DNA of 64,000 nt, taken from the NCBI RefSeq assembly GCF_001677475.2, contig NZ_CP015229.1; one strand, written 5' to 3'. This document shows, one piece after another, positions 5,668 through 61,090 of the stretch (position 1 is its first letter; every line of letters begins with the position of its first letter). The translations under genes and the position numbers were made by a program. Under the pieces are notes generated by a model that searched no databases, was not told the origin of the DNA, and saw only the letters and a program-made list of their open reading frames with translations. This DNA is from Escherichia coli. GTDB taxonomy: Bacteria; Pseudomonadota; Gammaproteobacteria; Enterobacterales; Enterobacteriaceae.

Positions 5668-6527
5668 GATTTCGCTCCCGAACTCCATCGTGTAGTTATT
5701 GTAAATACATCCTCAGAACAGACATCCACGCAGCGACCGCACGTCATGCAATCGCGGCTGGTGACCTGCACCGTGCTTTGTTCATCCAGCACCGGGGCAC
5801 GTAGCACATGCGGTTCCGGGCAAACATGAAAACAATCCATACAGCGGTTACATTTCTGCCGATCGGTGGCCGCAACGGTAATCACACCTTTGCTACCCAG
5901 CACGCCATACAGCGCTCCAACCGGACAAATGTGCCCGCACCAGCCGTGTTCAACGACCAGTAGATCAAATAAAAACAGCGCGAGAATAAGCAGCGCGCCG
6001 CTACCGAAGCCCATTACCAGGCTACGCCCCATCAGGGAAACGGGGTTGATCCATTCCCAGATGAGCGTGCCGGTTAAGGCCGATCCCACCAGAATGATCA
6101 CCAACAGCACGTAGCGAATGTGGCGAGGGATCGTCGCAGACTGATTGAGGTCAAATCGTCTGCGTAACCAGTTCGCTAAATCGGTAATTGGGTTCAGCGG
6201 GCAGACCCAGCTACAAAATAATCGCTTTCCTGCCAGGGCGTAGAGCACGGTGATAATCACCGCTCCGGTCAACGCCACCGTGGCAGGCAGATGACCACTG
6301 GCAAGACTTTGCAGCGTCATCAGCGGATCGGTCAGTGGAACGGTGTCGAATAACAGGCTACTGCTGTAGTTGCCGTGCAAGATCCACACACCAAACCACG
6401 GACCGCTCAAAAACATCCCCAGCACGAAGAACTGACAAAGGCGACGTAACACCAGCCAACGGTGGCTGCGCCACCAGCCTTTTTTCTCCAGCGCCTCGCG
6501 CCCGGCGTCACGTTTACGATTTGCCAT
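5664..6527 (-). CDS. napH: ferredoxin-type membrane protein NapH
   Basis: 287 aa ORF with TM segments and C-terminal Cys clusters (CNRCMDC..CP, CMTCGRC); operon order. Confidence 0.92.
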
Positions 6528-7209
6528 TGTTCCCCTCCAGCCAGCCGAAGCGGTAATGGTGACCTAACTCCCCTTTCGCTAGTGACAGCGGTAACACCTT
6601 GATTGCCGGTTGTTCCAGCACGCACACTTTTTCGCACTTACCGCAACCGGTACAGGCGTCGCTGTGAACCGTCGGCAGAAAGCGGGCGTGCTTACCGGTA
6701 CGCGTGTTGCGCTCCAGCTCCAGGGTGATGGCCTCATCAATTTTCGGGCATTCGCGATAACAAACATCGCAGCGCAGCCCCTGAAAGTTGAGACAGTTTT
6801 CCTGGTCCACCAGCACCGCCAGCCCCATCCGCGCGTCGTCGATCGATTCGATCTCACGATCCAGCGCACCGCTCGGGCACACTTTGGCGCACGGAATGTC
6901 CTCACACATTTCGCAAGGAATATCCCGTGCGACAAAATATGGCGTGCCCGCCGACAGGCCAGAAGCCAGCGTCGCCAGTTTTAAGGTGTCATAAGGGCAA
7001 GCCTGAACACACTGACCGCAACGCACACAGGCACTGGCAAAGGCGTTCTCGTTTATGGCTCCGGGCGGGCGCAACCGCACGCCAGATGCGCGTGCGGTTT
7101 GCTGTTGTAACCCCAGCGCCACACCCACGGCAGCCAGCCCGCCTGCTGTGCGAACGACATCGCGCAGAAAGCGGCGGCGACCATTTTGAGGTTTCGCTGA
7201 CCGGGACAT
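6514..7209 (-). CDS. napG: ferredoxin-type protein NapG
   Basis: 231 aa ORF with Tat-like N-terminus (RRRFLRD) and multiple CxxCxxC iron-sulfur motifs. Confidence 0.92.
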
Positions 7210-7215
7210 AATGGC

Positions 7216-9702
7216 TTACACCTTCTCCAGTTTGACCGCGCACTTCTTGAAGTCCGTCTCTTTCGAGAGCGGATCGGTCGCATCCAGCGTCAGTTTGTTA
7301 ACCAGCTGTGCGGCGTCGAAGAACGGCATGTACACCAGGCCCTGCGGCGGACGGTTACGACCGCGCGTTTCAACAATCGAGATCACTTCGCCACGGCGAG
7401 AAACCACTTTCACTTTGTCGCCACGGCGCAGATCGCGCGCTTTCGCATCCAACGGGTGAATAAACAGGACCGCTTCCGGGAAGGCACGGTGCAGTTCCGG
7501 CACACGGCGAGTCATACTGCCGGTGTGCCAGTGCTCCAGGACGCGTCCGGTAGAGAGCCACAGATCGTACTCTTCATCCGGTGCTTCCGCCGCCGGTTCG
7601 AACGGCAGTGCGAAGATCACCGCTTTGCCATCCGGTTTACCGTAGAACTTATAGCCTTCGCCCGCTTTCACGTACGGGTCGTTACCTTCGCTGTAACGCC
7701 ACTGCGTTTCTTTACCGTTCACCACCGGCCAGCGCAGACCGCGCGCTTTGTGGTAGTCATCGAACGGTGCCAGATCGTGACCGTGACCGCGACCAAACCA
7801 TGCGTACTCTTCGAACAGCCCTTTTTGCAGATAGAAGCCCAGCTCGCGGGATTCATCGTTCAGCTGATCTTCCGCCAGTTCGGATAGCGGGAATTTGCTC
7901 ACTTCCGGGGTGGCATACAGAACTTCGTACAGCGTTTTGCCACGCAGTTCCGGTTTCTTCGCCAGCAGCTCTTCCGGCCATACTTCTTCAGTTTTGAAGC
8001 GGCGGGAGAACTGGACTAACTGCCAGAGATCCGATTTCGCTTCGCCCGGGGCCTGTACCTGCTGACGCCAGAACTGAGTACGGCGTTCGGCATTACCGTA
8101 AGCGCCCTCTTTCTCTACCCACATTGCGGTCGGCAGGATCAAGTCCGCTGCCAGCGCACTGACTGTCGGATACGGATCGGAGACGATGATGAAGTTGCGC
8201 GGATCGCGCCAGCCCGGCATACGCTCTTCATTAATGTTCGGCCCGGCCTGCATGTTGTTGGTACACATGGTCCAGTAAACATTCAGCTTGCCGTCTTTCA
8301 GCGCACGGTCTTGTGCCACCGCGTGCAGACCGATTTTCGCCGGAATGGTGCCGCTCGGGATATTCCACTTCTTCTCGCAGATATCACGGTGTTTCTCGTT
8401 AGTCACCACCATGTCCGCAGGCAGACGGTGAGCAAAGGTGCCCACTTCACGCGCAGTACCACACGCGGAAGGCTGCCCGGTCAGGGAGAACGGACCGCAA
8501 CCTGGCTGGGAAATTTTGCCGGTCAGCAGATGCAGGTTGTAGACCAGGTTGTTGGCCCACACGCCACGAGTATGCTGGTTGAAGCCCATCGTCCAGTAGG
8601 AGATGACTTTCTTGTTCGGATCGGCATACAGCTGCGCCAGTTGTTCTAACTGGTCTTTCGGCACGCCGGTCATTTCGGCAGTTTTTTCCAGCGTATACTC
8701 AGCAACGAAGGCTTTGTAATCTTCAAAGCTCATCGGTTCGGAGGCGTCAGAACCTGGATTCTTCGCTGCTTTTTCCAGCGGATGGGTCGGACGTAAACCG
8801 TAGCCGATGTCCGTCGCCCCTTTGCGCAGGTTAACGTGTTTGCTGAAGAAGTCCTGATTTATCGCATTGTTTTGAATGATATAGTTGGCGATGTAGTTCA
8901 GGATCACCAGGTCAGATTGCGGCGTAAAGATGATGCCGTTATCCGCCAGTTCGAAGCTACGATGCTGGTAGGTAGAAAGCACCGCCACGGTGACGTTCTG
9001 GTTAGAGAGACGACGGTTAGTGATGCGCGACCAGAGGATCGGGTGCATCTCCGCCATGTTTGCGCCCCACAGCACAAACGCGTCAGCCTGCTCGATGTCG
9101 TCATAGCAGCCCATCGGCTCATCCATACCAAAGGTACGCATAAAGCCAACTACCGCCGACGCCATACAGTGACGCGCGTTCGGGTCGATGTTGTTCGAAC
9201 GGAAGCCCGCTTTGAACAGCTTGGACGCGGCATAACCTTCCCAGATAGTCCACTGACCAGAACCGAACATACCGATCGATTCCGGCCCTTTTTCTTTCAG
9301 GGCGGTTTTGAATTTCTCTTCCATCACATCGAAGGCCTGATCCCAGGTGATTGGGGTAAATTCGCCTTCTTTGTCATATTTACCGTTTTTCATACGCAGA
9401 AGCGGCTGCGTCAAACGGTCTTTACCGTACATGATTTTGGGCAGGAAATAGCCCTTAATGCAGTTCAGGCCACGGTTAACCGGTGCGTCCGGGTCGCCCT
9501 GACAGGCCACCACACGCCCCTGCTGCGTTCCGACCAGAACGCCGCAACCAGTACCGCAGAAACGGCACGGCGCTTTATCCCATTTAATGGCTTCCTGCTG
9601 ACCAACAACGGCGCGGGCAACGCCCGGCACGCTGAGACCGGCAGCCGCCGCAGCGGCCGCAACGGCGTTAGCTTTCATAAAGCTACGACGACTGAGTTTC
9701 AT
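7216..9702 (-). CDS. napA: periplasmic nitrate reductase catalytic subunit NapA
   Basis: 828 aa ORF with twin-arginine signal ([19 protein letters not shown]) and N-terminal Cys cluster CRFCGTGCG typical of molybdopterin oxidoreductases. Confidence 0.95.
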
Positions 9703-13353: not shown

Positions 13354-14997
13354 TTATGCCGTCCGGGCAACGGCATCACGCGAAGCAGCATCGCGCTCTT
13401 CGCCTGTCAGCTCGCTAAGTTGCCCGTTGCGCATTTCCAGCAGGCGGTCAGCGTGGATAAAGTAATGATCATCATGACTGATGGCGAAAATCGTTTTACC
13501 CATCTCCTGCATTAGCGGCAGCAGCACCTGATAAAACTCACGACGGAAGTGTGGGTCCTGATCCGCCGCCCATTCATCCAGCAGGATAATATCGCGTTCT
13601 TCTGCCAGCGCCAGCAACAGCGCCACGCGTTTTTTCTGCCCTTTTGATAACTTCAGGTTAACAATACGCCCGTTGCTTAACTCAAGCTTATGAGCCATTT
13701 TCAGCTGCGCCAGCCACTTCTCAACCAGTTGCGGGTTAGCGGGTTTACCCTCCGGCCCCAGCAGTTGATCAAACAGCCAGACATCGGTAAACACTGCCGA
13801 AAACAGTTTGCGATAATCTTCCGGTTGTTCGCCGCTGACAGGTTTGCCATCCAGCAAGATTTCGCCGCTTTGTGGCTGATACAAGCCCGTCAGCAACATC
13901 GCCAGCGTCGATTTTCCGCTACCGTTGCCACCAATCAGAAACAGCAGTTCACCACGTTTGATGGTGAGGTTAATCGGCCCAACGGAAAACGCGTTATCCT
14001 GATAAGCAAACGTCACGTTACGCAGCTCCAGCGTTTGCCAGTTGGGAAACGCCTGCGGGCGCGGAAACTCTGCTTTGAAAGGCGCGAGCGCGAATTTGTT
14101 CAGCTTGTTAAACGCCACCTGCGCCGTCAGCAGCGTCGGCAATGCGCCAACCGCCGAAAGCAGCGGCGTACGCAGGAATAACAGCGTCAACGAATAGGTC
14201 GCGGCAACGTTGGTATCAGCCCAACCGAGACTGTTCGCCATCCAGAACACCAGGCCGATTGCGCCCAGCATCATGATGTTTGACCAGTTCACGGCACTAA
14301 GATGGAAGGTGTCTGCGCGAATAATATGATGGCGATACTCTTGCGCATCAGGAATGTAGAGGTTGTTAAACACATACTCGGCGCGTTCCCGGTTCAGAGT
14401 CAGCTCTTTGCGCCCTTCGAGTACGGTTTGAAAATCCGTGTACAGCTTGTCTTCGGTTTCACGCAGGGTCGCCATATGTTTGTACACCCGCGCCACCAGC
14501 ACAAAACCGCCCCAGATGGTGACTGCCATCCAGATAGCCGTTACCAGCAACATTTTGCCCGACAGCATCCACAAGTACGCCGCGGAACCGATAGTGAGGA
14601 TGATCCCCTGCACCAGTTCCGGCAGACGCACAAAAGCAATGGTGATATTGCGCACATCGCTGGTTAACCCCGCCAACAACGAGGCGCTACCGAGTTGTTC
14701 AATGCGCTCGACGTGAGTATCGAGAATCCGCTTGATAAATTCACTACGCAGTCGGTAAACGAAGTGATGCCCCAAAGTGGTGAGCGCCAGTTGCGATCCG
14801 AGAGTGACGGCCATCAACAGCAGCAATAATCCCAGAAACTCCGGCAACACCAGCAGACTGGTATCCGCCGTTTCGATAAGGCGCTGATTGATAAAAGCAA
14901 TTAAGCCAATGCCTAATGCCGCACTGGCGAGGCTTAGCGCCATCACACTGATAAATGGCCAGCGATACTGCCGCCAGACAAGTACAAGAAGTTCCAT
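13354..14997 (-). CDS. yojI: ABC transporter, fused permease/ATPase (microcin J25 efflux type)
   Basis: 547 aa ORF with N-terminal TM domain and C-terminal Walker [10 protein letters not shown] and Walker B ILLDEW. Confidence 0.9.
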
Positions 14998-47645: not shown

Positions 47646-48716
47646 ATGCCAAATACATCTATTCAATTATCTCGCTGTAATATTTTACAAAATAATAAAT
47701 TGCAAACAGCAGAAATTTACAAAGAATCACAACAAACCGCGAAACTTGAGATTTTTTGCAATGAGTTTCTAAAAATATCTCAAAGTAGATTCGGGTTATC
47801 AACCTCAGCAGACAACATAGCTAATTTATTGGCTTTTTTCACGAAAGCCTCAGATGAAATTGATAGTATCAAAACCCAAAAAATTGACGTTCACAGTTAT
47901 GGTTTCGTACCAATAAGACATTTTGTCGAGCATGTCATAACGTATAAAAATGAATTTGCAGAAGATTATGAACCCTATACCCTTACCTTTACCCGAGGTG
48001 AAAACAACGAAGGTGTTTTGAGTATCGAAAGCAAAGAAGGGTTTCTTTCAGAAAGAACAATAAATTTAAATGAATATGAAACTGCAATTAACATCATCAA
48101 TGAGCATGTTGCAAAAGAAAATATCAATAACAAGATCCAAACATTGACAGACAAAGACACACCAAAAATAACCAACTCTGACAAAATTTATAAATTTATC
48201 CACGAGTTAAATATAAGAACTCAACTTTACAGCAAGCAAAAAGAATATACAGACCTGCTACTACATTCTGAGAAAAATACAGAATGGTACAAATACACAT
48301 CCTCCGAGGAACGCTATGATGTATTTAAGAATTCTTCTAAAAAAATTGAAAATACCTACAAGCAAATTGTGCAAGCGCAGAAAAAATTGAAGCAAATGAA
48401 ATACATCAATAAATTAAGTGGTGAGCTTATCGATATCGCCGACAAAAAGTTAGCACCATTAATAAATGATAGTTTCAGCTATACACGAGATTTCTTTGCT
48501 TACTCAAAAAATGAAAAAAATATCTTCACATTTGATAATTCTAAGTTTTTAGATCCAAAGGAAAAAGAAGGTTTAATGATACAACACAGCAATGGGCAAC
48601 TGGTTATTACTGGTAAATATTGCCCTGAAGGTATGCAAACAGCATTCACCCAAGAACAATATGATAAATTAATAAGATACATTAATATTTTCTTTACTTT
48701 CCAGAAATGCGAATAA
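47646..48716 (+). CDS. uncharacterised soluble protein (about 356 aa) on an AT-rich single-gene islet; no recognisable domain
   Basis: Uninterrupted 1.1 kb reading frame in about 30% GC DNA, where random frames are stop-rich; AAGGA Shine-Dalgarno 7 nt before ATG at 47646 (the track ORF begins at an upstream TTG at 47610); K/E/N-rich, no signal peptide or TM segment. Confidence 0.7.
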   Translation: MPNTSIQLSRCNILQNNKLQTAEIYKESQQTAKLEIFCNEFLKISQSRFGLSTSADNIANLLAFFTKASDEIDSIKTQKIDVHSYGFVPIRHFVEHVITYKNEFAEDYEPYTLTFTRGENNEGVLSIESKEGFLSERTINLNEYETAINIINEHVAKENINNKIQTLTDKDTPKITNSDKIYKFIHELNIRTQLYSKQKEYTDLLLHSEKNTEWYKYTSSEERYDVFKNSSKKIENTYKQIVQAQKKLKQMKYINKLSGELIDIADKKLAPLINDSFSYTRDFFAYSKNEKNIFTFDNSKFLDPKEKEGLMIQHSNGQLVITGKYCPEGMQTAFTQEQYDKLIRYINIFFTFQKCE

Positions 48717-48903
48717 TACTGTACATTATAAACTGCATTACAATTTATTATTGAGCCCTATTCATACTGTTTAAAGAATAACAATACCCAGTGTTAGCTT
48801 TCCTAACAAATGAGTTTTACGCAAATATGTTGGCATCTTTTTTAACAGGATGCTCAGGTGAATGAATAGAATAACCGGTAGTAGCATTATTTCGCTTTAG
48901 CTG

Positions 48904-48927
48904 AGGATGGCGCATGAACGCCATCCT
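48904..48927 (-). terminator. stem-loop immediately downstream of glpQ
   Basis: Stem aggatggcg / cgccatcct with 6 nt loop, 10 nt past the glpQ stop; no clear U-tract. Confidence 0.45.
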
Positions 48928-51648: not shown

Positions 51649-55713
<4,065 letters not shown>

Positions 55714-55720
55714 TCTTCAC

Positions 55721-55746
55721 TGGCAGGACGTGAAAACCTCCTGCCA
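55721..55746 (+). terminator. stem-loop after glpC
   Basis: tggcagga / tcctgcca stem 8 nt after the glpC stop; weak T-tract. Confidence 0.4.
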
Positions 55747-56085
55747 TTCATATCCACGCTGAATATTTCAGAATAACTGCTCTCTATTTTTTTACTTAAC
55801 TTCACATTTCCATGTATTGACACTCGCTATCTAAAAGTAGCTTTATTATGTCCCTTCAGAAACTAATTGATATAAATAATAATATTCACCACCACATTAC
55901 CTAAAAGAATAATAATATACGATTATTAAAAATTAAACATATTCACCAGCATTATATGTTTAGAATTACTTTGATAGTTCCCGCAAAAAAAATGTTTATA
56001 AATATTTATTTGCGTATATAATCCCGTCTGTTTAATATATTAAAAACATAATATTATTCCATTCATCAATATAAAAGGAACTTAA

Positions 56086-56676
56086 GTGAAAGCAAAAATT
56101 CTCATTCCATCGTTATCTGTTCTCTTGATGGGTATATCGGCTTTAAGTTATGCGGACACTCCTGCCGGTAAAGTTCATTTCAATGGGCTAATTACTGCAT
56201 CAACTTGTGACTTAGAGCAAGGTACAGGCAAGGGACAGAATGACCAGACCGTAACGCTTCAGACAGTGGACGTTGCTGATTTTGGCGCTGCTGTAGGTAA
56301 TGAAGCAGCAAACTCTGCAACAGATTTTAATATTAATCTTACCGGTTGTACGACACAATTAGGTAGCATCAACCTTGAATTTAGCGGTAATACCACCGAT
56401 GCCACCGATAATACAGCCCTGGCAATTGACACCGGTGCAGATAAAGCAACAGGCGTAGGGATTCGTATTTATCGTGAAGGTGCTTCTTCACCGATTAATT
56501 TTGCTACTGATCGTACCGATGCAGAAAGCTCTGCGGTAACACTTTCATCCATTAGCCCAACCAATGGTGATGGCAAGCATAGCTTTAATTATAAAGCGGT
56601 TTATGTCAGAACAGCAGATACAATTACTGAAGGTCAGGGTAACGCGACTGCGGATTATCGTATCGCTTACTATTAA
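56086..56676 (+). CDS. fimbrial major subunit (chaperone-usher pilin)
   Basis: 196 aa; GTG start with AAAAGGA Shine-Dalgarno; signal peptide; Cys pair typical of type 1-like pilins; C-terminal donor-strand-like YRIAYY. Confidence 0.8.
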   Translation: MKAKILIPSLSVLLMGISALSYADTPAGKVHFNGLITASTCDLEQGTGKGQNDQTVTLQTVDVADFGAAVGNEAANSATDFNINLTGCTTQLGSINLEFSGNTTDATDNTALAIDTGADKATGVGIRIYREGASSPINFATDRTDAESSAVTLSSISPTNGDGKHSFNYKAVYVRTADTITEGQGNATADYRIAYY

Positions 56677-56733
56677 TGATATATTTCAAAGGGGTGAAAT
56701 TACTACACCCCTTAATTACTAAAGTAAAAATGC

Positions 56734-57438
56734 ATGAAAAAATACTCTTTATTACTGATTGTATTATTTGCCAACATTGCTTACGGGGGAGTGGTTATTC
56801 GGGGAACAAGAATTATTTACCCGTCCACGGCGCGGGAAATCCCTGTAGAAGTGACGAATCAAGATAAAGAGCGTTCATACCTTGTTCAGGCCTGGATGAG
56901 TGACTTTGCCAATGATGCAAATAAGAAAACGCCATTTGTACTCACTCCGCCGTTAGTTAAACTGGAAGCTCAGAAAAACACGCTTTTCCGCTTAATCTAT
57001 ACCGGTACGCAAAAATTGCCGGAGGATCGTGAATCCATTTTTTGGCTAAATGTAAAATCCATTCCTGGGATGTCAGAAGAGTCTTCACAGGTGCCGAATC
57101 AACTGCAATTTGCCGTTCAGAGCCAGCTCAAAGTTTTTTATCGTCCGCTGGGGCTTGCTGATGATGCCAATACCGCCTATAGCAAAATCGCTTTCCGGAT
57201 ACAAGGCAACAGGCTAATCGCCAAAAACCCAACACCTTACTTTGTCACCTTCCGCACTCTGGCAGTGAATGGTAAGCCCGTATCGTATAAAGGAAACGGC
57301 GTTGTGAAAATGATGCTCAATCCATTTGGCGAGCAAACATATACTCTGACCGCATCCTCTTCTGAAAACAATAGTGTTGAATGGTCAGCAATAAATGATT
57401 ACGGCGGTACGACAAATACCATAAAGACCCGGTTATAA
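56734..57438 (+). CDS. periplasmic fimbrial chaperone (PapD/FimC-like)
   Basis: 234 aa with signal peptide and conserved N-terminal chaperone motif (GTRIIYP...); between pilin and usher genes. Confidence 0.85.
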   Translation: MKKYSLLLIVLFANIAYGGVVIRGTRIIYPSTAREIPVEVTNQDKERSYLVQAWMSDFANDANKKTPFVLTPPLVKLEAQKNTLFRLIYTGTQKLPEDRESIFWLNVKSIPGMSEESSQVPNQLQFAVQSQLKVFYRPLGLADDANTAYSKIAFRIQGNRLIAKNPTPYFVTFRTLAVNGKPVSYKGNGVVKMMLNPFGEQTYTLTASSSENNSVEWSAINDYGGTTNTIKTRL

Positions 57439-57499
57439 GCGCAATAGATTGTTCAGGAAAACGACAGGAATTATCTCGTACAAGGAAAGTAATAATAAC

Positions 57500-59986
57500 A
57501 TGAACTCCTTACATCTATTTTGTTTGCATGTTGTTGTAACAATAGTGCCATTGACACTGTTACAAAACAGTTACGCCCGCGAGGTGTTTAATTACAAACT
57601 TTTAGAGTCAGGGGCTTCAGAAAGCGAACTGGAAGCCATTAAAAATTTTGACAAAAATGATGGCCTGGTGCCCGGTAAATATCGGGTCGATGTTTTTATG
57701 AATAATCAACGCATTACACGTAAAGATATTGATTTTGTCGTTGATGATAAAGCGAACAAACTCTTACCTGTGTTAAGCAAAAAAGAGTATATCGCTATGG
57801 GGGTTGCCGATAGCCCCTCCGCGTCATTTGCCACGCTGGCAAATGACGATATCGTGACGAATTTAGAAAATTATATTCCCTTTTCATCAGTGCGCTTTGA
57901 GCAAAGTTCGCTGCGTCTGTATCTGTCAGTTCCACAACTGGCGATGAACAATGCCGCAAACGGGTATATTGATCCGGTTTTATGGGATAATGGATTGCCT
58001 GCGTTGTTTACAAATTACTATTTTAGCGGCTCACATAATTGGCAAGATGGTCGTTCAGATAATAGTTCATATCTTAATCTGAATAATGGTATTAATCTTG
58101 GTCCCTGGCGTTTAAGAAATAACATTAATTATAACGATGGCACCTGGCAAAATATTGATACCTATATCTGGCGAAATATCCCTGCGTTAACCAGCAAACT
58201 CATTCTTGGCGATACCTGGACAGATTCAGCCGTTTTCGATAGTTTCCAGTTTCGCGGGGTAAAACTGGAAAGTAATGAAAATATGCTTCCTTACAGCATG
58301 AGAGGTTTTGCCCCCGTTATTCGCGGCGTTGCCAAAAGCAATGCGCAAGTGACGATTCGACAAAATAATTATATTATTTACCAAAGTACGGTATCCCCAG
58401 GTCCTTTCGAATTACATGATGTCTCTCCTGTTTCTTCTGGTGGGGATATGGAAGTCACGGTAAAAGAATCTGATGGTAGCGAACAAAAATATATTCAGGC
58501 ATCAGCTTCAATTCCTGTCATGCGCCGAGAAGGAGCCATGTCTTATAGTTTATCTGGCGGAGAATATCGCTCATCTGATAACTCCCATGATAAACCCGGC
58601 TTTGCTCAGGCGACGCTGATTTACGGTTTACCTGCAGGCATTACCCTCTATGGTGGCACAATTTTTGCCAGTGATTATCGTTCTGGCGCATTAGGTGCGG
58701 GTGTCGATTTACAACACTTTGGCTCGCTTTCAGCAGACATTACTCGTTCATATAGCCAGACGGTTGATGACAGTTCACAACAAGGACAATCTTACCGATT
58801 GCTTTACTCGAAAAATTTCTCCAGCACTGAAACGAATATCACGCTTGCTGGCTACCGTTATTCCACAGAGAATTTCTATACCTTTAGCGAAGCACAAAAT
58901 AATAAAGAGTATGATGAGGACGACGCGTTTTCATACCGTAACAACTATAACCGCCATCGTCGGTTACAACTTACCATTAATCAGGCGATCCCCTCGTTTG
59001 GTCAGTTCAATATTTCAGGCTATCAACAAGATTATTGGGGACTCGGGGGTAAAGAGCGCAGCCTCAGCGTAGGGTATAGTCATAGTTGGGAAAATGTGAG
59101 TTTTAGCCTAAGTTATTTACTGACACGAATGCCAGACAATAATAAGAACGATCAACAACTCTCACTTTCTGTCAGCGTTCCACTAGGAAAATGGTTACCT
59201 GGTGCGCATGTTAATTACAATAACACCAGCAGTAATAGCGGTCACACTTTAAACAGTGTGGCGCTTAACGGTACTGCGCTGGAAGATAATAATCTCAGTT
59301 ATAGTCTGCAACAAAGTCATGGCGATCAAGGTTATGGTGGCAATACGTCACTCAGTTATCGCTCCAGTAAAGGCGTAATAGGCGCAGGCTGGAACTATAG
59401 TCAGGATCAACGGCAATTAAATTACAATATGCAGGGCGCAATTGTTCTGCATCCGTATGGATTAACCCTTGCCCAGTCTTTAGGTGAATCATCGATTCTG
59501 GTGCGCGCCCCTGATGCCAGTGGGCTGGGCATTAACAGAGGAACGTCGGTTTATACCGACTGGCGAGGATACTCCATCATCCCTTACGCATCAGCATTTC
59601 AGCGCAACCGTATCGCCATCAATACGCAAACCTTGCCGTCAAATGTTGAAATACCGGAACCGGTACAAGAAGTTATTCCTACGGAAGGCGCATTAGTCGT
59701 AGCCAATTTTTCAACGCGATATGGTCAGAAATTACTTTTAACCTTAATGCATAAAGACAAATTTGTTCCCTTTGGAGCCGTAGTCACTGCTGAAGATGAG
59801 CAAATTTCAACCCTCGTTGGGCGAAACGGTGAAACGTATTTATCCGGCGTACAAGCTAATCAAAAATGGCAAGTCAAGTGGGGAAAATCGGCCACTGAAA
59901 GTTGCCAGGTTCATATATCACCAGAACTACTTCAGACACCGCAAAACATGACTAATCTTATTATTGCCACCGCAGCGTGTGATTAA
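57500..59986 (+). CDS. outer membrane fimbrial usher (FimD/PapC-like)
   Basis: About 829 aa from ATG at 57500 (track ORF starts at upstream TTG); signal peptide, large beta-barrel, C-terminal Cys pair. Confidence 0.85.
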   Translation: MNSLHLFCLHVVVTIVPLTLLQNSYAREVFNYKLLESGASESELEAIKNFDKNDGLVPGKYRVDVFMNNQRITRKDIDFVVDDKANKLLPVLSKKEYIAMGVADSPSASFATLANDDIVTNLENYIPFSSVRFEQSSLRLYLSVPQLAMNNAANGYIDPVLWDNGLPALFTNYYFSGSHNWQDGRSDNSSYLNLNNGINLGPWRLRNNINYNDGTWQNIDTYIWRNIPALTSKLILGDTWTDSAVFDSFQFRGVKLESNENMLPYSMRGFAPVIRGVAKSNAQVTIRQNNYIIYQSTVSPGPFELHDVSPVSSGGDMEVTVKESDGSEQKYIQASASIPVMRREGAMSYSLSGGEYRSSDNSHDKPGFAQATLIYGLPAGITLYGGTIFASDYRSGALGAGVDLQHFGSLSADITRSYSQTVDDSSQQGQSYRLLYSKNFSSTETNITLAGYRYSTENFYTFSEAQNNKEYDEDDAFSYRNNYNRHRRLQLTINQAIPSFGQFNISGYQQDYWGLGGKERSLSVGYSHSWENVSFSLSYLLTRMPDNNKNDQQLSLSVSVPLGKWLPGAHVNYNNTSSNSGHTLNSVALNGTALEDNNLSYSLQQSHGDQGYGGNTSLSYRSSKGVIGAGWNYSQDQRQLNYNMQGAIVLHPYGLTLAQSLGESSILVRAPDASGLGINRGTSVYTDWRGYSIIPYASAFQRNRIAINTQTLPSNVEIPEPVQEVIPTEGALVVANFSTRYGQKLLLTLMHKDKFVPFGAVVTAEDEQISTLVGRNGETYLSGVQANQKWQVKWGKSATESCQVHISPELLQTPQNMTNLIIATAACD

Positions 59987-59990
59987 CATC

Positions 59991-61037
59991 ATGAAGATAA
60001 AAATCATCAGTACTTATAAAGTTACAAGTCGTGAAACGTTATTGCTGCTGGTTATTTTGATAGCAGCCTTTGTTCCTTCTCTTAGTTTCGCTAAAACATG
60101 TAGCTACGCCAGTGGTGGACCGGCATTAGTTTCATTTTCTGATATTTCGATCAATTCTGAATACAATAAAAATACAGCGCCAGGAACCATAATTTTTGAT
60201 CGAAGTTATCATTCCAGTCACTCAGGACAGATCACATGCTCAGACAATTATCCTGATTACAGTGAAGGGTTTGCCACTTCTCCTTCAACTTTAGTCGGCA
60301 GTGATATCTGTTTATTCAATGTACCTTTGACTAATGGAAAAAATTCTGGCATCGGCATTAAAATATTTTACGATTTAAAGAATAATAATACCACCCCAAA
60401 CAATTACTGCATGGAATACCCTAAACGTACCAGCACTGCAAATAAAAACAACTTTTCCGTTGAGGGTAATTTCCGCATACAATTAAAAGTCATCGGGGAA
60501 TTACAGAGTGGTGAAATTGATTTATCTCGTTTTAGTAATGCTGGCATTTGGTGGAATAATATTGAGGCATTTTCTCTCGAATTTAGCAACACCATTATTA
60601 ATCTTCACTCATTGAGCTGCGACCTGAACACGCCTGATGTTCCAGTTTCATTATCACCCGCCGCAGGAATTAATTCCGACATCACCTTCAAAGGGATTAA
60701 CTCCACTTCGGCGCTGGTAGATTTTAATATCGGACTAACGTGTGATCCGGGAACCAATGTCGCCATACGTTTTGAAGGCGATACGGTAAGTGGAAGTAAT
60801 AATTCAATCCTGAAGCTAACTCAACAGAATAATTCTGCCTCTGGGGTTGGCGTACAGATCTTAGATAAGAATAAAAATATTATCCCCCTTAATCAACCTG
60901 ATTACGTTTTACAGTTAAGTAATATTCAGCAATCAGCCACGTCGTTGAATTTTAGTGCGCGATATATTCAGACAGAAAGTAATGTAACGCCAGGAAAAGC
61001 GGATGCGGATGCGACATTTTATCTTTCGTTTCCGTAA
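59991..61037 (+). CDS. fimbrial tip adhesin / minor subunit (two-domain)
   Basis: About 349 aa from ATG at 59991; signal peptide; N/S/T-rich N-terminal domain plus C-terminal pilin-like domain; last gene of operon. Confidence 0.7.
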   Translation: MKIKIISTYKVTSRETLLLLVILIAAFVPSLSFAKTCSYASGGPALVSFSDISINSEYNKNTAPGTIIFDRSYHSSHSGQITCSDNYPDYSEGFATSPSTLVGSDICLFNVPLTNGKNSGIGIKIFYDLKNNNTTPNNYCMEYPKRTSTANKNNFSVEGNFRIQLKVIGELQSGEIDLSRFSNAGIWWNNIEAFSLEFSNTIINLHSLSCDLNTPDVPVSLSPAAGINSDITFKGINSTSALVDFNIGLTCDPGTNVAIRFEGDTVSGSNNSILKLTQQNNSASGVGVQILDKNKNIIPLNQPDYVLQLSNIQQSATSLNFSARYIQTESNVTPGKADADATFYLSFP

Positions 61038-61061
61038 TGAACAGCAATAAACCCGCGAACA

Positions 61062-61083
61062 GGTGCCGGAAGCATCCGGCACC
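61062..61083. terminator. stem-loop between fimbrial adhesin gene and yfaY (convergent)
   Basis: ggtgccgga-agca-tccggcacc hairpin; no U-tract on either strand. Confidence 0.4.
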
Positions 61084-61090
61084 TGGAATA

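Follow-up and report, generated by a model that had tools for sequence, protein, structure and literature searches.

The stretch of DNA analyzed, hereafter the window, is 64,000 nucleotides (nt) of an Escherichia coli genome (assembly GCF_001677475.2, contig NZ_CP015229.1), and all coordinates given refer to it. Between glpC and yfaY, the window carries four co-directional genes that very probably constitute a complete chaperone-usher fimbrial operon, which entered from Escherichia ruysiae through homologous recombination within the flanking core genes and took the place of the L-rhamnonate (rhm) genes. The features on which this reading depends are listed below, with lengths in amino acids (aa) and base composition as guanine plus cytosine (GC) content.

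53905-62100, no strand assigned: block of E. ruysiae (cryptic clade IV)-like DNA acquired by import, in which glpB is represented by its 3′-end, yfaY by its 3′ ~1 kb, and glpC and the operon are complete
54523-55713, + strand: glpC, E. ruysiae-type allele, 396 aa (NCBIfam equivalog TIGR03379, 763 bits against a cut-off of 280)
55714-56085, + strand: AT-rich leader, presumed regulatory region, 372 nt, 27.4% GC
56086-56676, + strand: major pilin, 196 aa, GTG start codon, AAGGA ribosome-binding site
56734-57438, + strand: PapD-like periplasmic chaperone, 234 aa
57500-59986, + strand: outer-membrane usher, 828 aa from an ATG (the longest reading frame starts from a TTG at 57449)
59991-61037, + strand: two-domain tip adhesin, 348 aa from an ATG (the longest reading frame starts from a TTG at 59964), with a predicted receptor-binding domain at residues ~35-205 and a pilin domain at residues ~206-348
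61091-62296, - strand: yfaY, mosaic gene (NCBIfam NF002978, 801 bits against a cut-off of 496), 3′ ~1 kb of E. ruysiae type and 5′ ~200 nt of E. coli type

The four genes span 56086-61037 and all are intact, with no internal stop codon in the direct translation of any of the four open reading frames (ORFs). Apart from ORFs that overlap these genes or the flanking genes, the insert has no other ORF of 60 aa or more, and the leader has none longer than 21 aa that does not overlap glpC. The insert, 55714-61090, begins at the first base past the glpC stop codon and has a GC content of 41.0%, as compared with 56.0% for glpABC and 54.6% for yfaY, which is followed by yfaZ and then nudI. The gene order at the same position in E. 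coli K-12 is glpC-rpnE(yfaD)-(ypaA)-yfaU-yfaV-rhmD-yfaX-yfaY, with rhmA/T/D/R corresponding to yfaU-V-W-X, and homology between the window and K-12 stops at 55706 and restarts at 61113. A first-pass annotation, made by a model from the letters alone, had predicted the four-gene set, the low GC content with an AT-rich leader, the presence in K-12 of yfaD/ypaA and the rhamnonate genes, and junctions free of transposase and integrase genes. The ORFs, Pfam assignments, junction alignment and repeat search agree with it on each of these points; K-12 does not have the operon at this site, and the ORFs carry no frameshifts. The annotation also described the operon as a strain-specific replacement. 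It does replace K-12 genes but is not confined to one strain, being present on dozens of E. coli contigs and in E. ruysiae.

The evidence for import comes from the identity of the window to K-12 and to strain H605, which is listed as a member of cryptic clade IV (PMC4700944). Clades III and IV together constitute E. ruysiae, with an average nucleotide identity to E. coli of 92-92.8% (PMC8346766). The usher sequence of H605 is identical to that of genomes labelled E. ruysiae, and its locus has the order nrdB-yfaE-inaA-glpQT-glpABC-operon-yfaY-yfaZ-nudI-ais-arn. Compared in 200-nt bins, the window is 85-98% identical to H605 up to position 53,900, 96.5-100% identical from 53,905 to ~62,100 and 78-92% identical after 62,500. 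The profile against K-12 is the reverse, with 96-100% identity outside the block. Within the block, glpC is 98-100% identical to its H605 counterpart and 88-96% identical to that of K-12, and the best of the complete E. coli genomes compared (n = 5,421) reaches 92.2% over 53850-55706 and no more than 92.8% over 61091-62090. The breakpoints are located to within approximately ±200 nt, at 53,700-53,905 on the left and 62,100-62,500 on the right. H605 is itself uniformly 77-96% identical to K-12, with no step at the block ends, and because this divergence is even, the H605 arrangement appears to be native, the window a mosaic and the direction of transfer from an E. ruysiae-like donor to E. coli. 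The flanking core alleles are donor-like, the remainder of the window is recipient-like and the breakpoints are sharp, the combination by which introgression is recognized. Carried in with the operon are ~1.8 kb of glpB/glpC and ~1 kb of yfaY, a core-gene flank of ~2.8 kb in all that matches the donor at ~99%.

Two other origins were considered. In one, the window belongs to E. ruysiae or a different cryptic clade that was filed under the name E. coli, and the operon is native there. This was suspected from the 88-94% match of the junction flanks to E. coli; cryptic-clade strains such as H605 are indeed on record as E. coli, and the upstream 15.7 kb reaches just 96.8% identity to the best E. 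coli genome. That average, however, takes in the divergent block plus the variable yfaL and inaA-glpQ regions, and outside 53,900-62,100 the window remains at the K-12 level given above with H605 lower (78-98%, mostly 85-95%) and sharp steps at both block ends. On these identity profiles the suspicion was dropped, and we give such an origin next to no chance. An E. whittamii-like sequence (designated L018) was also tried as the donor and ruled out, as the window block stands at ~90% from both L018 and K-12.

Alternatively, a mobile genomic island could have inserted between glpC and yfaY by site-specific recombination or transposition and have since lost its mobility genes. The low GC content relative to the flanks is consistent with this, as are the occurrence of the same four-gene cassette at three unrelated chromosomal sites in three genera (see below) and the presence in the K-12 interval of rpnE, annotated as an ISNCY family transposase. 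There is, however, no ORF for an integrase or transposase in the insert and no regulator or recombinase gene in the imported block. No transfer RNA (tRNA) gene is annotated in the interval in K-12 or in E. coli Res13-Sevr-PER07-33, although no tRNA scan was made, and a search of the flanks for direct and inverted repeats yielded nothing significant: the matches were short, AT-rich and attributable to chance, and none marked the end of an island. A donor-matching core flank of ~2.8 kb also fits homologous recombination rather than site-specific insertion. An island at this site is therefore very unlikely, although one could still lie behind the far earlier acquisition of the cassette by Escherichia. 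Recombination between homologous core genes on either side of the operon accounts for the absence of mobility genes, and the same event would have resulted in the loss of rpnE-ypaA-rhmA/T/D/R.

The operon is absent from all 5,426 complete E. coli genomes searched, plasmids included. Proteins identical to those of the window are nevertheless on record for E. coli from dozens of contigs (ANO90037-42, along with many surveillance assemblies), and the clusters formed at 90% protein identity also contain members from E. ruysiae, Escherichia sp. TW14182, H605 and "unclassified Escherichia". Over 14 kb, one of the assemblies (L024) matches the window at 99.993% identity. The right breakpoint of the window is shared by two other E. 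coli carriers, L003 and L025, in which the donor tract extends from near 52,800. The simplest account would be a single import of ~9.5 kb, followed in the lineage of the window by an E. coli patch over 52,800-53,900.

Some further variation was seen around the block and at the same locus in other E. coli. Two patches to the left of the block, 52705-52904 and 53505-53704, are 90% and 91.5% identical to K-12 and 93.5% and 89% identical to H605, respectively, which suggests further mosaic recombination from another source. To the right, H605 and K-12 are 77-86% identical across yfaZ-nudI (62700-64000), as compared with ~90-95% elsewhere in the flanks, and this region seems to be evolving rapidly between E. 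coli and E. ruysiae. E. coli Res13-Sevr-PER07-33 has the order glpC-rpnE-yfaY without the rhm genes (L002, 3115-4283). The glpC-yfaY interval of E. coli therefore occurs in no fewer than three forms, with rpnE plus the rhm genes, with rpnE alone or with the fimbrial operon. At its 3′-end, the Res13 yfaY is closer to the yfaY of the window than the K-12 gene is.

Each of the four encoded proteins has the features predicted for its role. The pilin of the window matches the Pfam Fimbrial family (E = 3e-18), and its nearest counterpart among the K-12 pilins is FimA, at 38.6% identity. A signal peptide is present, and three features align with FimA: the N-terminal donor strand (GKVHFNG, corresponding to GTVHFKG in FimA), the cysteine pair C41/C88 and a C-terminal tyrosine. 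The chaperone matches PapD_N (E = 5.7e-38) and PapD_C (E = 1.3e-17), and its subunit-anchoring arginine (in GTRIIYP) and lysine (in NVKSIP) align with their FimC counterparts. FimC, with 35% identity, and SfaE are its closest solved relatives (135-140 bits). The usher has PapC_N, Usher (model positions 1-549 of 549, 636 bits) and PapC_C domains, and aligns over its full length with the solved structure of FimD (614 bits), as compared with 273 bits for PapC. In the tip protein, the Pfam Fimbrial family is matched only by residues 230-347, and the C-terminal domain is similar in sequence to FimF, FimA and the pilin domain of FimH. A PapD-like chaperone, a three-domain usher, a pilin and a two-domain tip adhesin without a donor strand of its own are the components by which a chaperone-usher system is recognized, and the operon is thus predicted to encode a complete FimD/FimC-like set in the order pilin, chaperone, usher, tip adhesin.

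The N-terminal ~170 residues of the tip protein have no match to any PDB chain or Pfam family. The model of this domain has predicted local distance difference test (pLDDT) values of 86-92, and the top Foldseek matches for the tip protein are the solved full-length adhesins CupB6, FimH and LpfD. In AFDB50, apart from its own entry, the matches are only two-domain fimbrial adhesins with no more than 25% identity, from many proteobacteria. The predicted receptor-binding domain has a beta-rich fold that can be superposed on 3u4k and 8df0, structures of the MrkD/Abp1D type, at a sequence identity of just 10-11% to the Abp1D and MrkD receptor-binding domains. When 1.84 billion proteins were searched with a profile of this domain alone, 9 representatives matched, and for 3 of these the E value was under 1e-30. 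As modelled, the tip domain is a member of a tiny sequence family with a widespread fold.

Comparison with the named fimbrial families of E. coli, proposed in the first-pass annotation, gave no match. All four proteins score below every cut-off of the NCBIfam fimbrial equivalogs (Lpf, Fim, Sti, Bcf, Stk, Sta, Yeh and others). The best scores, relative to the cut-offs, are 739/995 for the usher against PRK15193, 700/1271 for LpfC and 179/360 for LpfB, followed by 56/221 for LpfA, 58/169 for LpfE and 77/200 for FimF. The usher is 41% identical to FimD, 39% to SfmD, 39% to ElfC, 34% to HtrE and 29% to YehB. With regard to the gamma-1 (Fim/Sfm/Elf/Lpf-like) clade of the Nuccio-Baumler usher classification, a rough neighbour-joining tree places the usher family on the Fim/Sfm/Elf side, but in a separate deep clade with unnamed ushers from Yersinia, Serratia, Cedecea and Pseudomonas; this tree was built from a small reference set, without bootstrap and without gamma-2, gamma-3, pi or kappa references. 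A low-stringency blastn search with the usher gene aligned no more than 11% of its length in the 5,426 complete E. coli genomes, at ~70% identity, to an unnamed usher and to elfC. In a collection of 5.8 billion proteins, the members of the usher family are 99, 84, 75, ~70, 66-69 and 58% identical to the usher of the window, and all other matches are at 50% or less. The tip protein has only 13 relatives in that collection.

The catalogue of 38 E. coli chaperone-usher types defines types by usher phylogeny and locus position, and its main text has no mention of glpC, yfaY, yfaD or rhm (Wurpel et al. 2013, PMC3559732). Insofar as that text documents them, the operon apparently fits none of the 38 catalogued loci or usher clades. 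A literature search for glpC and yfaY together with fimbriae, or for E. ruysiae fimbriae, found no account of the operon or its cassettes. Type 1 fimbriae (fimAICDFGH) also use the chaperone-usher pathway; FimD and FimC/SfaE are the closest solved relatives, and the donor strand, cysteine pair and chaperone arginine and lysine residues all align. The operon differs from that of the long polar fimbriae (lpfABCDE) in scoring far below the equivalog cut-offs and in having no lpfE-like fifth gene, and from other four- and five-gene Fim-like operons of Salmonella and E. coli (Sti, Bcf, Sth, Sfm, Elf) in that its usher is so distant from SfmD and ElfC. We regard it as a distinct, unnamed FimD-like chaperone-usher type, seldom present in E. 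coli. Different systems, likewise, are the Abp1/Abp2 pili of Acinetobacter baumannii and the type 3 Mrk fimbriae of Klebsiella, and with the low identity noted above their fibrinogen and collagen ligands are not transferable. The critical arginine of the anterior-loop pocket is R86 in Abp1D and R105 in MrkD. Fibrinogen is bound by Abp1D, and an interface of MrkD that binds collagen V has been reported (PMC9942807). A host glycoprotein or matrix protein as the ligand of the tip domain would be a reasonable guess, but no more.

Diverged versions of the operon are present elsewhere. Variant 2 (78% DNA identity) is also located between glpC and yfaY, and the backbone GlpQ and NudI encoded with it are exact E. 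whittamii proteins. Variant 3 (73% DNA identity; usher 75%), from a record labelled "E. coli", adjoins yfaY. In Citrobacter portucalensis and on a related contig, the cassette is positioned between an acetyltransferase gene and DUF465-mdoG, and in [Enterobacter] lignolyticus, with an usher 58% identical to that of the window, between a Rick_17kDa_Anti gene and YkuD-mfd. All of these cassettes, together with that of E. ruysiae, are orthologous and have the same four genes with nearly equal lengths; the three Escherichia versions (E. ruysiae, E. whittamii-like and variant 3) adjoin yfaY and two also adjoin glpC. The Citrobacter and [Enterobacter] lignolyticus cassettes differ in being at other chromosomal sites and in having leaders that cannot be aligned with that of the window; no mobility genes are present in their displayed flanks, and DNA homology of the Citrobacter copy to the window is confined to the coding region. 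A scan of species-representative genomes with the tip alignment gave at least five distant matches, to the pilin domain alone and with no bearing on carrier species.

The proteins are 99-100% identical to those of the window in H605, 77-87% in variant 2, 62-84% in variant 3 and 58-80% in Citrobacter. By component, for variant 2, variant 3 and Citrobacter, respectively, the values are 87, 84 and 80% for the pilin, 84, 82 and 72% for the chaperone, 84, 75 and 70% for the usher, 75, 59 and 51% for the N-terminal domain of the tip and 83, 73 and 71% for its C-terminal domain. The most conserved component across the variants is therefore the major pilin (80-87%) and the least conserved is the receptor-binding domain of the tip (51-75%). 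Type 1 fimbriae show the opposite, with a variable FimA and a conserved FimH. Two contigs have peculiarities of their own. The variant 3 contig (L011) has a 37-nt copy of the yfaY 3′-end at positions 1-37, upstream of the leader, and the yfaY 3′-end again at 5786-5811, which could reflect a partial target duplication or an assembly artefact. On the variant 2 contig (L018; Logan SRR22121090), the adjacent GlpC (7019-8209) and YfaY (13608-14813) are versions found on that contig alone, which hints at a similar block import into E. whittamii. The tip gene of L018, called at 208 aa, had been taken for a pseudogene, but this was a gene-calling artefact and direct translation revealed an intact gene.

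In five diverged versions of the operon the four genes are intact and almost equal in length. The ratio of nonsynonymous to synonymous substitution rates (dN/dS) is 0.05-0.11 in each gene (~0.07), indicating that the four genes are under purifying selection; the synonymous rate (dS) could not be estimated for variant 3 and Citrobacter, in which synonymous sites are saturated. Between the version in the window (variant 1) and variant 2, dS is 1.1-1.9 for the operon genes and 0.52 for the neighbouring glpC, a two- to fourfold difference, so that the operon alleles either predate the species split or arrived separately. These results bear on a further alternative, that the fimbrial cluster is cryptic and serves no function in this strain today, as a relic that is in decay or was never expressed. 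Silence under laboratory conditions is common among E. coli chaperone-usher operons, the leader here is AT-rich, there is no linked regulator, and cluster members in other strains include truncated ushers or pilins of 165, 215, 567 and 610 aa. The four genes are, however, intact in the window and in each variant examined, the dN/dS values are low, the hallmark residues are retained, and a hairpin downstream of the pilin gene (described below) has been maintained by compensatory changes. We regard a relic as improbable, and an operon maintained by selection and acquired from E. ruysiae remains the preferred reading.

Four candidate regulatory elements were located in and around the operon.

55721-55746, + strand: hairpin 3′ of glpC, likely the glpC terminator, -15.9 kcal/mol (z = -4.85 relative to shuffled sequences)
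55995-56022, + strand: leading candidate for a sigma-70-like promoter, TTTATA-16 nt-TATAAT, ~64 nt before the start codon of the pilin gene, matching the consensus at 10 of 12 positions
56689-56713, + strand: hairpin between the pilin and chaperone genes, -13.1 kcal/mol (z = -3.1)
61060-61085, no strand assigned: GC-rich hairpin between the convergent tip gene and yfaY, with an 11-bp stem including 8 GC pairs, -22.9 kcal/mol (z = -5.25)

The hairpin at 61060-61085, the only convincing element in a promoter and terminator scan, is likely to be a bidirectional terminator. The pilin-chaperone hairpin is kept in all four operon variants with compensatory changes in its stem (GGGGTG/CACCCC, GAGGTG/CACCTC and others) and, we infer, is a candidate messenger RNA stabilizer or a partial terminator that sets the ratio of pilin to assembly machinery. 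The -10 box of the promoter candidate is within the best-conserved part of the leader across the variants. The leader can be aligned with that of variant 2 over only the proximal ~100-150 nt and with the Citrobacter copy only from 17 nt upstream of the start codon. There are no Rfam matches in 55000-62500 at E ≤ 1.

By analogy with studied chaperone-usher systems, the four products would be exported by the Sec system, and each subunit would then be capped by the chaperone through donor-strand complementation. The usher would accept the two-domain adhesin first and then polymerize the single major pilin below it by donor-strand exchange; adaptor and terminator subunits would be lacking, and the fibre would be tipped by a single receptor-binding domain. 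The hairpin conserved 3′ of the pilin gene would probably ensure that pilin transcript is in excess. With an AT-rich leader and with neither a regulator gene nor an invertible switch adjoining it, the operon is likely to be silent in the laboratory, for example through H-NS. As to origin, the operon lies at the glpC-yfaY site in E. ruysiae (cryptic clades III/IV), from which an ancestor of this E. coli strain very probably gained it in a block of ~8-9.5 kb. Crossovers in glpA/glpB and in yfaY would have deleted rpnE-ypaA-rhmA/T/D/R, and E. coli sequence would later have been restored over ~52,800-53,900.

Several points weigh against parts of this account. The donor is named from one clade IV genome together with matching metagenome and Sequence Read Archive (SRA) contigs, and the block is ~99% rather than 100% identical to H605, so that the actual donor lineage is unsampled. 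Some E. ruysiae and E. coli records have truncated ushers. Promoter-like sites are not enriched, 16 being found where 15.2 are expected, which makes the promoter candidate a weak one. At 10-11% identity to Abp1D and MrkD, likeness of fold predicts no ligand. Fibre assembly, expression and binding are predicted from the genes, as are silencing by H-NS and the role of the hairpin.

If correct, the preferred reading adds to the E. coli pan-genome a chaperone-usher fimbrial type that is apparently outside the 38-type catalogue, as far as the text of the catalogue documents its loci, and that is present in no complete RefSeq genome. It would also constitute a clean case, at a resolution of ~200 nt, of an adhesin operon crossing from E. 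ruysiae to E. coli through recombination in housekeeping genes, and an import route of this kind, with no mobility genes, would escape tools designed to find islands. As predicted from the genes, the import also removed the capacity for rhamnonate utilization, so that adhesion and metabolism would have been altered together. The understanding of chaperone-usher systems themselves is unchanged, but a tip adhesin whose fold is widespread and whose sequence family is very rare is a reasonable candidate for receptor discovery. A broader proposal is that the glpC-yfaY interval is a swap site in Escherichia at which the fimbrial operon and the L-rhamnonate genes are exchanged between species, with the fast-evolving tip encoding a new receptor specificity that adapts the carrier to its niche. 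Taken as a whole this is rather unlikely; if true, the import would have changed adhesion and carbon-source use in a single step in an E. coli lineage.

Elsewhere in the window, a 1.7 kb segment between inaA and glpQ (47193-48904) has a GC content of 32.8% and a single ORF (47610-48716, + strand, 368 aa) with no NCBIfam match. The segment is missing from the inaA-glpQ position in K-12, H605 and L018, and is present in 1,052 of the 5,426 complete E. coli genomes, in which the ORF is annotated as a hypothetical protein.

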